Below the pieces are notes generated by a model that worked only from the letters and a program-made list of their open reading frames with translations, did not search any database and had not been told where the DNA came from. The position numbers were made by a program, and so were the translations under genes. This document shows positions 1,800 to 51,410 of a DNA stretch of 64,000 bases, piece by piece. The first letter of the stretch is position 1; every line of letters starts with the position of its first letter. The stretch covers positions 113,646,001-113,710,000 of the forward strand of contig OZ024741.1 of the NCBI GenBank assembly GCA_964016885.1, read 5' to 3'. Source of the DNA: Eledone cirrhosa. Taxonomy: Eukaryota.

Positions 1800-2300
1800 T
1801 GTTGACACCTGGAATATAGCTTAAGAGAAACATGACAATAATGATATGATAGGCACCCAATATTTTGAACTGGTTTATAGAATTCTCTTGGCTTTTGTCA
1901 TTCTTAGTAGAGCTTTAAAGAATTAGCTTTTAAAGAATTTCCCTTTTCTTTAAATCTATCAACCATGACCGACCCCCAACCATCTTATAGACACCTGAAA
2001 TATAGGCATTGTTAGCTGAAGAGAAACTTAAAAATAAGGAGTGGCACCCCAATCTGAACTTGTTTATAGAATTCTTTCTGCCTTTGTCACTCTAAATATA
2101 AATTATAGCCTTAAAGAATTAGCTTTTAATGAATTCCCTTTTCTTTCAACCAATGACCTCCACCCATCCCACTCCTCACCCTCTCCAACCACCTGAAAAG
2201 ACATAAATACCACAACCTTTATTTTGGAAAGCCAGATTCCTGATGATTTCTAAAGAATTAAACAGTTCTAGTCCTGTAGAATCTCATCTATATTAAAACT
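1800..2300 (+). mobile_element. HHR-bearing element family C, with an internal diverged ~190-bp duplication
   Basis: 3' part is homologous to 25441-25520, 51300-51425, 63140-63188 and 650-676. It ends in (TA)n. 1851-2010 resembles 2043-2200. Confidence 0.65.
2234..2284 (+). ncRNA. Hammerhead ribozyme, family C (GAAA mutated to UAAA)
   Basis: AGAUUC-CUGAUGA-uUUC..GAAu-UAAA-CAG(uucuaguc)CUG-UA-GAAUCU; perfect 6-bp stem I. Confidence 0.7.
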
Positions 2301-2427
2301 ATATATATATATATATAATAAAAAAGAAAATTTCGCTCTACAAGGCTGAATACAATAAATGTAATCTGAGTTTTTCGAATATTAAGTGGATCTCCTAATA
2401 TGCAGATCTTACTGATTAGCCAGTCTG

Positions 2428-2503
2428 CTAATATGCAAATCAGGCCGATCAGTCACTGTGTATTTTTGAAAATAGCATATATTTTCACTAGCTTTGGCAG
2501 GTG
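2428..2503 (+). promoter_or_regulatory. Putative octamer + TATA-like promoter cassette upstream of the family A HHR
   Basis: ATGCAAAT 2433-2440, GAAAATAGCATATATTTTC 2468-2486, TGGCAGGTG 2495-2503. Same order and spacing as in family B (27014-26938, minus). Confidence 0.5.
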
Positions 2504-2511
2504 ACCAGTGA

Positions 2512-2557
2512 GCTATACTAATGAAGGGTGATACCCAGAAACATTAGTGTCTGCAGT
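2512..2557 (+). ncRNA. Hammerhead ribozyme, family A (core mutated to CUAAUGA in this copy)
   Basis: GCUAUA-CUAAUGA-aGGGU..ACCCa-GAAA-CAUUAGUG-UC-UGCAGU. The sister copy at 62841-62878 has an intact CUGAUGA. Confidence 0.7.
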
Positions 2558-2714
2558 TATGTTTGCATGCCACATAAGAGCTAGAATGAAGTGTTCATTC
2601 TACTGACATGGCTATAAATTTGAGGCTTGTTTGCATAATTGCAAATGAATCGAATGTTATTATTAATATTCGAAAAACTCAGATTACATTTATTATATAT
2701 ATATATTTATATAT

Positions 2715-21616: not shown

Positions 21617-21914
21617 TATATATATATAAATTATAAATTACCCAATTATCAAAGTAATGTTCAAATCAGTTAATTGCTGACAATCGTTTCTTCCAAACTT
21701 TTGCTTGGAATCATCAGAACATTATCAATGTTTGTACATATAATTAACCTCCTATTCAACTGAACAATCATATAGATACATATATATTGATGTTGTGAGC
21801 AACAGTTTCCTATTTGCAGGGTATAATGGATGCAAAATATATTATACGAGAATTGTACAAAAATTAAAATTAAAATTAAAAGAACAGATATGTGTGTGTG
21901 TGTGTGTGTATAAT

Positions 21915-25456: not shown

Positions 25457-25508
25457 GGCTTTCCTGATGATTTCCATCGAATGAAACAGTTCTAGTCCTG
25501 TAGAAGCC
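25457..25508 (+). ncRNA. Hammerhead ribozyme, family C, intact core, in an ~80-bp TA-flanked insert
   Basis: GGCUUUC-CUGAUGA-uUUC(cauc)GAAu-GAAA-CAG(uucuaguc)CUG-UA-GAAGCC. Confidence 0.85.
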
Positions 25509-25805: not shown

Positions 25806-26205
25806 AATGGAGCTGCGGCGCTGCAAATGGGTTACATATGAAAAAGTTTGTCCTCATCAGCGGCCATCCAACCGTCGTAGGCATTTCGTCGCATTAAAGG
25901 CCATATACCTCAGGTTGGTGCGAGCAACGGCTAAAAAAAAGTCGTTGGGACACGTAAATAAAGGGGACGCTAGGGTAAACAAACAAAATGGTTTAAGCAG
26001 CAGAAAGTGATGAAGAAGGAAACAAGTCCCAGATTTCTATGAATTTAAACCATTTTGTTTGTTTACCCTAGCGTCCCCTTTATTTACGTGTCCCAACGAC
26101 TTTTTTTTAGCCGTTGCTCGCACCAACCTGAGGTATATGGCCTTTAATGCGACGAAATGCCTACGACGGTTGGATGGCCACTGATGAGGACAAACTTTTT
26201 CATAT
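25806..26205. mobile_element. Young TA-flanked fold-back element (family E): 161-bp arms plus 30-nt tail
   Basis: 25836-25996 vs 26045-26205, one mismatch seen; a related fragment lies at 13377-13463. Confidence 0.85.
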
Positions 26206-26629: not shown

Positions 26630-26888
26630 TAATCTGTTATATATTAAATGTAAGTATGCATGTATACGTACATACATATATGTATACAGACGTACAGTAG
26701 CATGCACATATATATATATATATACATATATATATACATATGCATACAGGTACACATACATATATGCACGTATCAGTTTAGCGGCGCTAACGTCGCTTTG
26801 TTCGTTTGTAAACAAACTGAACAGCCTGAATTTATGCCATACGGTGTTAAGGCAACCACGTCACCTTTTTGTTCAACACTGACACAGG

Positions 26889-26933
26889 AACGATGTACTA
26901 GTTTCAAGCTTGTTAGCTATCATCAGCACCGTT
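26889..26933 (-). ncRNA. Minimal type I hammerhead ribozyme, family B, intact
   Basis: AACGGUG-CUGAUGA-uAGCU(aaca)AGCUu-GAAA-CUAG-UA-CAUCGUU; palindromic stem III. Confidence 0.9.
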
Positions 26934-26937
26934 TACC

Positions 26938-27018
26938 CATCTGCCAGATAGTTGAACGTTCGAAAGTATATACTTTCCTTATGAAAATTAACGGCTGAGC
27001 AGCCTAATTTGCATATTG
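26938..27018 (-). promoter_or_regulatory. Putative octamer + palindromic TATA cassette upstream of the family B HHR
   Basis: ATGCAAAT 27014-27007, GAAAGTATATACTTTC 26977-26962, TGGCAGATG 26946-26938. Confidence 0.5.
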
Positions 27019-27337
27019 AGTGAGTTAAATCGGTCAGGCATACCGAAAACGATAAATTGAAACAAAATGAAAACGAAATTTCATTTCTCACTCTTAGTAT
27101 GGCACTTACTTAAATGTAAGTATGCATGTATACGTACATACATATATGTATACAGACGTACAGTAGCATGCACATATATATATATATATACATATATATA
27201 TACATATGCATACAGGTACACATACATATATGCACGTATCAGTTTAGCGGCGCTAACGTCGCTTTGTTCGTTTGTAAACAAACTGAACAGCCTGAATTTA
27301 TGCCATACGGTGTTATATATATATATGTGCATGCTAT

Positions 27338-27930
27338 ATCTTGGAGAGGTGTAAGTGTGTGAGGTCGGATTATATCAAGTCGTCCCAGGTTTTTCTCGGT
27401 CTGCCTACTCCGTAGCTACCTTCTATTTTGATCGCCCTGCAATTTTTTATACAGCTGTCATCTATCATGCGCATCACGTGACCATACCAACGTAATCTTA
27501 TCTCAAGTAAACAGCATCTAATCCCTCTTATTTCTAATTTCTCACTTAGTTCATTTATGCTTTGCCGTTCGCGTATATTACTATTACACATCCAACAGAG
27601 TATGCAAGCTTCGTTCCTCTCCAGTCTGCACAGATCCTCTGCACACAAGGCCCATGTCTCACTGCCATGTCACATCGCTGTTCGTATGCAGGCATCATAC
27701 AGCCTGCCTTTTATTTTTAGAGAGAAACCTTTAGCGGCCAATAGTGTTATAAGCTCTCTGAACTTTTTCCATCCCGTTCGGACTCTAGCTACAGTACTTT
27801 CAGAGCACCCTCCACCACTGCTGATTTTGTCACCCAGGTAACGGAAGGTGTCCACTATTTCTATAGAACCATCTGGGCAATGGAATGAGCTAGTATTCTG
27901 TGGGCATTTGCTGCTACTTATTGCACCAGA
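27338..27930 (-). mobile_element. RTE LINE internal fragment (C-terminal region)
   Basis: ORFs 27670-27987 and 27370-27648 match 19700-20300. Confidence 0.9.
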
Positions 27931-39411: not shown

Positions 39412-39459
39412 CATCCCGAGCTGAAGATCCGCGAAGGTGAAACAATTGTTCTCGGTATG
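39412..39459 (+). ncRNA. Minimal type I hammerhead ribozyme in a ~75-bp TA-flanked insert
   Basis: CCGAG-CUGAAGA-uCC(gcgaa)GGu-GAAA-CAAUUG-UU-CUCGG. Confidence 0.9.
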
Positions 39460-41074: not shown

Positions 41075-41410
41075 CAATGATATTAAATAATTGGAAACTA
41101 TATTTATAAAACCATATTTATTCTATTATATATATTTCAAGGGTACCAAAAACTTTGGTACGCTTTCATCAGATAAAATGCAAGGTGTGTTTTATAAATT
41201 TTGACAAGGCCAAGGAACATACCTTATCAGTTGAATTTTCCAAGGAAAATTCAGCTGATAAGCTATGTTCCTTGGCTATGTCAACATTTATAAAACACAC
41301 TTTGTATTTTATCTGATGAAAGCGTACCAAAGTTTTTGGTACCCTTGAAATATATATAATAGAATAAATATGGTTTTATAAATATAGTTTCCCTTTATTT
41401 AATATCATTG
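41075..41410. mobile_element. 336-bp palindrome with two back-to-back hammerheads
   Basis: Arms 41075-41241/41244-41410 with a 2-nt loop. Confidence 0.9.
41306..41365 (+). ncRNA. Type I hammerhead ribozyme, intact; mirror copy at 41120-41179 on minus
   Basis: AUUUUAU-CUGAUGA-AAGcGUACCAAA..UUUGGUACcCUU-GAAA-UAUAUA-UA-AUAGAAU. Confidence 0.9.
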
Positions 41411-41454: not shown

Positions 41455-42780
41455 TAGGAATAACCAAAGAGTGCTTAGAAATACATTGTTTTATTAGCTA
41501 ACAGTGTTTCATCCATACCCCATGGCAGGAATCTTCACAGCCTATAAACAAGAGTATATCAATAGTTGCTTGCTCCATCGAGCTGCATCACCAGAACAAG
41601 GTTAAAGGACCAGAAGGGGGTCCTGAGGCCAGCGCTATATGGAAAAAGACAGAATACATGATGCTCATAATGTCATAAAATGTCTTAAAAAATTACATCA
41701 AAAATTAAAAATTACACCAAAAATTTATCATTAAATGGTGCAATAGATGATAAAGAGGTTGGGAGAGGGTAGCAAGGGATGAGTGAAGGGATTACTCAGC
41801 ATGATCAGAAGCAATAAAAAAAATAATAAAAAAGTACAAAAATACAGGGATAACAAAAGAGATAAATATAAAAATACAAAACGATAAAGGAACAAAAAGC
41901 CCGAAAACCCCCCCAAATATAAAACAAAGCAAAGCATAGATACATTAAAGCACAAGCAGTGCAAAAAGAGGGTGTACAGGTAGATCTAGAGAGTTTGCAA
42001 GCATGAGTCTGTGAAAAGAATAGTTGGTTAGCAGTGGTGCAGCCTTATATGTATGATAGTCCATATGAGGGATGGTGTACTCCAATTATATCGCCTTGTA
42101 ACAGGTCAATTTTCCTTATCATATCAGCACCTTATGAACCACATCGATATGTTCCAGTTCCGAACGTAAAGTGAGATAACACTATTTTTCCAAAACCTAT
42201 ACCCAGGGGTTTTCGGGCTTTTTGTTCCTTTATTGTTTTGTAGTTTTATATTTATCTCTTTTGTTATCCCTGTATTTTTGTACTTTTTTATTATTTTTTT
42301 TTATTGTTTCTGATCATGCTGAGTAATCCCTTCACTCATCCCTTGCTACCCTCTCCCAACCTCTTTATCATCTATTGCACCATTTAATGATAACATTTTG
42401 GTGTAATTTTTAATTTTTGATGTAATTTTTTAAGACATTTTATGACATTATGAGCATCATGTATTCTGTCTTTTTCCATATAGCGCTGGCATCGGGACCC
42501 CCCTGCTGGTCCTTTAACCTTGTTCTGGTGACGCAGCTCAATGGAGCATGCAACTATTGATATACTCTTGTTTATAGGCTCTGATGATACCTGCCATGGG
42601 ATATGGATGAAACACTGTTAGCTCATAAAACAATGTATTTCTAAGCACTCTTTGGTTATTCCTATAACTATAACGGCTCTGTAGTATACTAGTTATCCTA
42701 CTTTGAGCTAAAACCACACTGTCATACCAAGGGCAATATATCTGCGTGTCTGGGCTTATTGATATATTTATCAACGAAAC
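41449..42780. mobile_element. TA-flanked element with ~465-bp inverted arms, an HHR in each arm and a ~108-nt tail
   Basis: 41449-41911 matches the reverse complement of 42206-42672; tail 42673-42780. Confidence 0.9.
42577..42623 (+). ncRNA. Hammerhead ribozyme; mirror copy at 41496-41542 (core GUGAAGA)
   Basis: GGCU-CUGAUGA-stem II-GAAA-CACUG-UU-AGCU. Confidence 0.7.
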
Positions 42781-46700: not shown

Positions 46701-46854
46701 ACTGTTGAGGAACATAGGTATGGCCAGTGAACAGGCTCATAACAGTGGGGCTTGCAACTGTGGTGGATGGAAAACTCTCTTTGTCCCATAATCTAAACTA
46801 ATGCTGCTGCTGCCTCTGCTACGACTACTAATGATAACCATTTTATATTTGCAG

Positions 46855-46982
46855 CCACATTCGAAGTAGAGAAAGGTACAAAATGGCTTAAAGGCAATTA
46901 CAAAAGTATTGGATTTTACCGAGTCAACTACGAAGTCGATGTCTGGAAAGCTCTCATATCTGAGTTGACCACCAACTTTCAG
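46855..46982 (+). CDS. Internal exon of an M1-family aminopeptidase (aminopeptidase N / ERAP / glutamyl aminopeptidase-like)
   Basis: tttatatttgcAG|...CAG|GTaggt; 128 nt, phase 1 to 0; TFEVEKGTKWLKGNYKSIGFYRVNYEVDVWKALISELTTNFQ matches the W.K.N....GFYRVNY....W..L motif at the start of the ERAP1-like C-terminal domain. Confidence 0.9.
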
Positions 46983-47144
46983 GTAGGTTAACTAACACTC
47001 TTTCTTTGTTAACATCCTCTTTATTTCTTTTGCTCTCTCATAGACACACACATACATACACACATTGCATATATAAATATATACACATTGATATATATTG
47101 TCCATATAAATATATGCACATGGATACACACACGCATGTATATG

Positions 47145-51360: not shown

Positions 51361-51410
51361 CTTTCCTGACGATTTCCTTTGAATGAAACTATTCTAGTCC
51401 TGTAGAAGCC
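51361..51410 (+). ncRNA. Hammerhead ribozyme, family C
   Basis: CUUUC-CUGACGA-uUUC..GAAu-GAAA..CUG-UA-GAAG; upstream 51300-51360 is homologous to 2180-2235. Confidence 0.7.

Follow-up and report, generated by a model that had tools for sequence, protein, structure and literature searches.

Can a tandem repeat with a hammerhead ribozyme carry, in each of its units, the promoter for its own transcription? Two repeats in the 64,000-nucleotide stretch analysed here (the window), part of the 3.0-Gb, AT-rich animal genome of Eledone cirrhosa, raise this question. A preliminary description reported that families A and B both place an octamer, a TATA-like box and an "E-box" upstream of a hammerhead and a shared block downstream of it. 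It proposed that each unit bears an snRNA-type promoter just 5' of the ribozyme. All the motifs that it quoted are present in both families, in their places in the window (Table 1).

Table 1. Parts of the family A and family B copies in the window
Feature	Window positions	Strand	Remarks
A, inverted 5' arm	2320..2385	-	Reverse complement of the unit 3' end, including the ~34-nt tail extension (END2); adjoins (TA)n
A, degenerate second copy of the 33-34-bp octamer+YCAGT sub-repeat	2399..2431	+	
A, octamer-containing block TATGCAAATCAG	2432..2443	+	Matches host U6/U6atac proximal element TATGSWAATKAG
A, YCA core (TCAGT)	2449..2453	+	Matches host U1/U2/U5 element at -55 to -58
A, TATA-like box (2476-2485) within GAAAATAGCATATATTTTC	2468..2486	+	Inside a hairpin covarying across lineages
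A, "E-box" TGGCAGGTG	2495..2503	+	5' strand of distal extended stem I
A, type I hammerhead	2511..2558	+	Core CTAATGA 2518-2524, stem II 2525-2537, GAAA 2538; predicted cut after GUC at 2551
A, "downstream block"	2606..2613	+	5' strand of 8-bp long-range helix; partner is the tail extension
A, 3' end END1 (TTACATTTATT)	2684..2694	+	Continues into (TA)n
B, whole insertion	26644..27315	-	5'-truncated partial tandem: tail, promoter (predicted), hammerhead, tail; END1 (26653-26644) in (TA)n
B, octamer-containing block TATGCAAATTAG	27004..27015	-	
B, YCA core (TCAGC)	26994..26998	-	
B, palindromic TATA hairpin	26962..26977	-	TATA begins 26 nt after the YCA core
B, "E-box"	26938..26946	-	Distal stem I strand; pairs with 26886-26879
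B, intact type I hammerhead	26889..26933	-	Stem I 7 bp, core 26926-26920, palindromic 2-bp stem III; predicted cut after GUA at 26896
B, "downstream block"	26835..26842	-	5' strand of long-range helix

The window copies, their superfamily and their insertion ends

Both hammerheads are of type I with a short palindromic stem III. In that of B, stem II measures 4 bp and opens with a U-U pair. That of the window A copy is degenerate (G5 of the core is replaced by A and stem I is reduced to 2 bp), as are those of D2, D3 and E; intact A hammerheads have an 8-bp stem I (e.g. L010) and a GUC site. The core, a stem I of 6-8 bp, stem II, a short stem III and an NUH site are present in A, B, B2, C, C2 and D. 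Rfam at its gathering threshold gave 0 matches over the window and detected neither the A nor the B hammerhead.

The octamer-to-core distances of 85 nt (A) and 88 nt (B) in the preliminary description are those of the window, but 85 nt is not the family-A value. The distance is 93 nt in 21 of the 26 A units measured and 85 nt in 1; the 85 nt of the degenerate window copy reflects an 8-nt deletion just upstream of the "E-box". Among 30 loci of family B, the distance is 88 nt in 24; in the other 6, the nearest 100 nt contain no octamer. Taken by itself, the octamer shows no enrichment in the window (4 occurrences vs 7.1 expected). Each intact A unit holds three copies of the octamer+YCAGT sub-repeat, with octamers at positions 248, 282 and 315 of the 443-bp unit. 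At L011:932-1540 this sub-repeat is expanded to a minisatellite.

A and B had been described as two diverged families. However, an alignment spanning promoter region, ribozyme and tail unites A, F, B, B2 and C, with F intermediate between A and B. By this alignment A and B belong as branches to a single retrozyme-like superfamily, which has at least seven lineages; the examples fetched define B2, C, D, E, F, G and probably H. Family A has 1,651 candidates genome-wide, of which 40 were scored, and a pattern search found 10,759 exact 29-nt cores of family B, often in arrays. The octamer block followed within 60-90 nt by a hammerhead core, whose stem II was set to exclude A and B, gave 7,943 matches outside these two families vs 0 for the reversed control. 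A second octamer-hammerhead pattern gave 134 matches vs 2 controls, mostly mutated known lineages with a few new ones; L261 and L262 from this set look like chance matches and were excluded from the lineage set. The genome thus searched appears to hold over twenty thousand short protein-less tandem repeats, each with a predicted hammerhead behind the cassette. Units measure 443 bp in A and 466 bp in B and C, with a GC content of 0.36-0.37; B units reach about 500-540 bp with an internal TA repeat. Old copies of cassette and hammerhead (L256, L259, L260 and L263; lineages G and H) are apparently non-tandem and have no usual tail.

Among 30 family A loci, 12 have one arm ending at END1 and an inverted arm ending at END1 extended by a ~34-nt tail, 6 are inverted with one defined end (18 inverted in all) and 12 run in a single direction. 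None shows an END1/END1 pair, and most ends continue into (TA)n. At L001, END2 is found on one arm and END1 on the other. The family-C array shows the same pattern of inverted arm and tail. It lies at G000:C1:5738000-5752500 (L173-L196, L237, L238) and contains about 30 near-identical 466-bp units; one end of it bears the inverted arm and the tail, the opposite end END1. The family A ends match Penelope insertion anatomy as drawn in the Fig. 2 legend of PMC8557442. Judged by its ends, the anatomy is of Penelope type: a partial tandem, an inverted 5'-truncated arm, a tail at one end and a microsatellite target. That of A supports the proposed partnership of Penelope and retrozymes, the latter having been put forward as non-autonomous PLEs in the parts of PMC7229834 and 10.64898/2026.07.22.740005 used here.

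No autonomous partner sharing sequence was found among the fetched loci, which contain one PLE family only. It encodes RT and GIY-YIG (L236/L197, L239), and its 3' end has no cassette by eye. One copy, a 5'-truncated and frameshifted Penelope-like ORF (L236:4218-5515, minus strand), directly adjoins an old family-D copy, and a second (L239:120-1461) lies about 3 kb from a family-E copy. As no cassette is seen in it by eye, this family was set aside as autonomous partner and its position taken as adjacency.

One host snRNA retrocopy has its tail in common with a hammerhead-bearing element. The ~20-nt tail of this U6 retrocopy (L074:1500-1630, minus strand) equals that at window 2280-2299, the 3' end of a hammerhead-bearing element immediately to the left of family A. 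Different tails are common to several further retrocopies of U6 and U6atac. These common tails suggest that snRNAs may be mobilised by the machinery of the repeats. One U6atac retrocopy (L215:1240-1500) directly adjoins an inverted family-A unit.

The window contains further hammerhead-like cores (15 vs 3.2 expected; 21687-21717, 25464-25486, 25860-26200, 39421-39442, 41135-41350, 42581-42612 and 51366-51388), some as inverted pairs. They adjoin (TA)n, have no octamer cassette and look like Penelope 3' ends. Inspection by eye hints that the A and B copies may sit in or near a host gene. Beside family B, positions 27340-27900 (minus strand) hold what we take by eye to be the 3' fragment of an RTE-like LINE, and 46850-46985 (plus strand) is presumably an exon, resembling M1 aminopeptidase by eye.

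The cassette and the small-RNA promoters of the host

Host genes for U6, U1, U2, U6atac, U5 and RNase P were retrieved, and 20 host promoters were compared in all (upstream 300 nt; L061-L063, L081-L091, L101-L103, L211, L221-L227 and L267). By their established assignment, U1, U2 and U5 are Pol II genes, and U6, U6atac and RNase P are Pol III genes. The block TATGSWAATKAG stands at -77 to -79 in 4/4 distinct U6/U6atac promoters, followed by CCT and then by TATA at -30. It occurs in 0/15 distinct U1/U2/U5 upstream sequences and in 0/23 dispersed U6/U6atac copies, the chance of a match being about 3e-4 per promoter-length stretch. The U1/U2/U5 genes have AATT at -88 to -91 (15/15), about 33 nt before the core in every case, YCART at -55 to -58 (14/15) and a TATA-like box near -30. 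RNase P, which has a T9 terminator, shows TCAGT and no octamer, with one TATA 32 nt later and a second at +15. Counted from the core, the first TATA comes after 31-33 nt in the 5 T-terminated genes (four U6-type and RNase P), the whole of the host Pol III class in this comparison, vs 23-28 nt in 14 U1/U2/U5 genes; U1f (L135), which has no core, was excluded.

A TATA-like box at -30 is unusual for Pol II snRNA genes. In this host it is the core-to-TATA spacing, not the presence of TATA, that separates U1/U2/U5 from U6/U6atac/RNase P. Many host snRNA genes also share a distal TTAYYTCCCTT near -260. The distal element combined with the octamer gave 30 matches genome-wide, 24 of them U6; the other 6, considered as further host genes, were rejected as repeat copies or unexplained matches with no credible Rfam hit. 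In some units of the U6 tandem array (L067, L068, L070-L073), a ~175-bp SINE-like repeat has inserted between TATA and gene and has spread with the array. The U6 and U1/U2 promoter elements thus defined for Eledone cirrhosa are useful for guide-RNA expression.

Comparison with the upstream regions of host U1, U2 and U6, a check put forward in the preliminary description, identifies the octamer block of the repeats with the upstream element of the U6/U6atac promoters. The octamer is thus an snRNA-gene element, as had been said, but here a proximal one, at -77 to -79, and not a distal enhancer of the vertebrate style. The repeat cassette consists of the octamer block, a YCA core 17 nt from the block start and a TATA 25-29 nt after YCA. 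The YCA core is newly recognised in this analysis; the preliminary description did not contain it. The TATGSWAATKAG block is present in all repeat lineages; in C-H it was selected by the search pattern, and families A and B had been named before the host genes were examined. YCA and TATA were in no search pattern. YCA lies at exactly 17 nt in 14/17 representatives, with the full TCAGT in A only, and the first TATA falls within 25-29 nt in 11/11 representatives. This spacing is of the U1/U2/U5 type (23-28) and not of the Pol III type (31-33).

Motif and spacer columns were compared across and within lineages. Among the five most distant lineages (L263, H-like and old, was excluded), identity is 0.80 at YCA, 0.73 just before TATA, 0.45 in ungapped TATA columns and 0.38 in the stretch between them. 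The upstream, 12-16 and downstream spacers are at 0.22-0.27 (random 0.27). At the fixed offset, TATA reaches a summed score above those of all 5,000 shuffles; as the repeat lineages share ancestry, such cross-lineage counts overstate independence. A, C and E give weak TATA scores, and TATA persists in G and E4, which show no evident palindrome. Three copies of the octamer+core unit occur in A and two in G, which we count for a promoter since binding sites multiply likewise; in G (L256:660-700) the second octamer lies 40 nt upstream. The proposal that motifs vary less than spacers therefore stands across lineages but not within families, where variation does not differ between the two (A 0.042 vs 0.033, p 0.36, 30 distinct copies; B 0.010 vs 0.016, p 0.75, 13 distinct copies). 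This is expected if most copies decay neutrally.

Other host features are missing from the repeats. The AATT about 33 nt before the core is found, among repeat representatives, in D2 only. The CCT core and the 31-33-nt spacing of host U6 are not seen, nor is the distal element, which lies about 260 nt upstream in the host. A matrix from 12 host genes found no 3' box above background in units A, B, C and D; one apparent match in A was rejected as scoring at background. The cassette matches neither host class fully, and its combination occurs in none of the 20 host promoters examined. Still, the U6-like block, the fixed-distance TATA in all lineages and the cross-lineage motif conservation support the snRNA-type promoter that had been postulated just 5' of the hammerhead.

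Proposed transcription, cleavage and mobilisation of the unit

We favour, with moderate confidence, a compact snRNA-type promoter, likely for Pol II, that would copy itself through read-through and cleavage within a Penelope-mobilised tandem unit. From sequence we infer its activity, start site, polymerase, cleavage, circles and mobilising enzyme as follows. SNAPc and TBP would bind the cassette and Pol II would be recruited, starting about 16-28 nt before the hammerhead core. Meeting no 3' box and insensitive to the T5-T6 runs in A and C, Pol II would read the tail, the next promoter and the next hammerhead. Cutting at both hammerheads, probably as dimers in view of the palindromic stem III, would release a promoter-containing monomer; dimeric cutting with a short stem III was shown for axolotl (PMC7229834). 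The monomer, perhaps circularised, would then be copied by Penelope RT/endonuclease into (TA)n as a partial tandem. Because the promoter would lie inside the cut monomer, every new tandem insertion could transcribe itself. The geometry of host Pol II genes predicts a start at the C|A step of the "E-box", i.e. core +56 in B, B2 and C2, +57 in F and +58 in A; for A this concerns intact copies, the window copy having its deletion just upstream. In B the predicted start is the A at 26942.

Which polymerase would read the unit is judged here from spacing and T runs. A and C hold T5-T6 runs (T6/T5) before or inside the next promoter, where they would stop Pol III, and no unit has a host-like 3' box; Pol II fits both observations. 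The other candidate is a Pol III promoter of the U6 kind (type 3) whose spacing is slightly shortened; its transcripts would mostly stop at the T-rich tail end, and leaky termination would supply the monomers that contain the promoter. It would account for an octamer block otherwise confined to U6/U6atac (4/4 vs 0/15 in U1/U2/U5), and the CCT of U6atac has the same offset, 17, as the YCA of the repeats. END2 coincides with the first T4-T6 runs, but it can also be explained as a Penelope tail extension. B has no run longer than T4, which suits Pol III, whereas the runs in A and C do not. The spacing speaks against Pol III: no representative among the 11 reaches the 31-33 nt found in all five host Pol III promoters, and the T-terminated RNase P has no octamer, so that spacing separates the classes better than the octamer does. 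The core also shares its third base, A, with Pol II genes. We consider Pol III unlikely, though a serious candidate.

Part of the cassette also pairs in RNA. In A-F, TATA falls within a hairpin that covaries, and in five lineages (A, F, B, B2 and E) stem I extends beyond the predicted start, by 8-16 nt on the upstream side. The downstream block, first regarded as a DNA motif, turns out to be one strand of an 8-bp RNA helix with compensatory changes, its partner being in the tail; the helix covaries across six lineages (A, B, B2, C, D and F). In B, an upstream copy of the block (27308-27301) has its helix partner at 27104-27097. The helix encloses END1, and may be recognised by Penelope RT. Circular MFE z values of -7.4, -10.0 and -8.9 for monomers A, B and C (25 shuffles each) indicate that they are highly self-paired. 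Part of the cassette conservation is therefore explained by RNA structure (TATA hairpin and extended stem I).

It could be argued from these pairings, "E-box" included, that there is no active promoter at all. The cassette would persist for its RNA structure, for recognition by Penelope proteins or as the relic of a promoter captured in the past, and read-through from host genes or adjacent elements would transcribe the repeats. The equal variation of motifs and spacers within families and the missing distal element agree with this. Yet most of the octamer block and of YCA stays free of pairing when B and C are folded, and both motifs are conserved beside randomised spacers. The 12-mer equals the host U6 element and comes with host-like spacing, for which there is no RNA-level reason. 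Common B variants in one public sequencing run also avoid both motifs (0/13 sites in the cassette-to-core stretch fall in the octamer block or YCA), a weak indication. This explanation appears to us quite unlikely.

A USF E-box is known from a sea-urchin U6 promoter, where it lies upstream of TATA. One more candidate is a promoter in which octamer and TATA act with a USF-type E-box, the downstream block being another DNA element and the two families having evolved independently. The lineage comparison contradicts it, and it is very improbable here. CANNTG is found at corresponding places in A and B but anywhere in the stretch in only 6/17 representatives, and is lost at the homologous site even in B2. 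It contains three common B variants, pairs with the strand 3' of the ribozyme (distal stem I) and is rejected as a promoter element; the host snRNA promoters examined have no conserved counterpart of it after TATA. The downstream block and its partner change together in six lineages, and A and B are homologous through F.

The Pol II reading yields base-level predictions of the start site, the polymerase and the motifs that matter, and would show how a retroelement can keep an upstream promoter. A wider view is tentative, and we hold it to be possible but doubtful. SNAPc-dependent snRNA promoter capture would be a general engine of animal retrozymes. A U6-derived element, respaced by half a helical turn to U1/U2 geometry, would have engaged Pol II, which reads through T-runs and so permits self-copying. 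At least seven lineages would still be diversifying on Penelope machinery, and some of their old dispersed copies (G, H) may now be host small-RNA genes.

Comparison with known systems

The repeats share with host U6/U6atac the octamer-containing proximal block and with U1/U2/U5 the YCA core, the TATA spacing and the predicted start distance; unlike the host promoters, they have no distal element, upstream AATT (D2 excepted) or 3' box. The insect grammar of PSEA, PSEB and TATA served as a comparison system for snRNA promoters (PMC1761439).

Non-autonomous derivatives of PLEs and pLTR elements resemble the repeats in having partial tandems, an arm that is inverted and 5'-truncated, a tail of 30-40 bp at a single end, (TA)n targets and a hammerhead, as far as described in the parts of Craig et al. 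2021 (PMC8557442) and 10.64898/2026.07.22.740005 used here. They differ in that no autonomous partner sharing sequence was found here among the fetched loci. Characterised PLE promoters are internal and overlap a 5'-UTR intron (same parts of PMC8557442 and 10.64898/2026.07.22.740005). The words "promoter", "snRNA" and "mollus" have 0 occurrences in Li, Clavereau and Pollet 2026 (10.64898/2026.07.22.740005), supplements aside.

The schistosome hammerhead satellite has an internal Pol III promoter (Ferbeyre 1998, cited in an excerpt of PMC2220036). Like it, the present units are hammerhead repeats with their own, here predicted, promoter; unlike it, they have an upstream-type snRNA cassette, whose survival would depend wholly on the tandem arrangement of the unit.

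In several invertebrates and amphibians, retrozymes rank among the circular RNAs of highest abundance. The parts of the retrozyme papers used here (PMC7229834; 10.64898/2026.07.22.740005) do not say how transcription occurs, and the Results and Discussion of PMC7229834 define no promoter for retrozymes. Metazoan non-LTR retrozymes, found in coral, mussel and axolotl, have units of 150-450 bp and a GC content under 50% (Cervera and de la Pena 2020, PMC7229834, in excerpt). The present repeats are likewise non-coding tandem units with a type I hammerhead each, GC under 50% and a self-paired monomer; they differ in that their units, at 443-500 bp, are at or above this range, and in that their circles are predicted.

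This cassette and cephalopod retrozymes are not described in the literature searched, which lay largely outside subscription journals and Repbase/Dfam. The promoter of newt satellite 2, studied by Coats, Zhang and Epstein in 1994, reportedly combines an octamer and a PSE. This snRNA promoter drives Pol II (excerpt of PMC2220036), and the 1994 newt study is the only account of snRNA-promoter hammerhead repeats in the literature searched, as far as the parts used here extend. The present repeats resemble newt satellite 2 as tandem type I hammerhead repeats with a predicted internal snRNA-type promoter and a short palindromic stem III (PMC7229834, in part). Unlike it, they occur in an invertebrate host and form at least seven dispersed lineages rather than one satellite, and their cassette includes TATA and follows the promoter grammar of its own host. 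By sequence, the repeats have the traits of a non-LTR retrozyme and would work like newt satellite 2. The cassette would then be the second snRNA-promoter case after the newt, from a distant invertebrate lineage and backed by the promoter grammar of its host.
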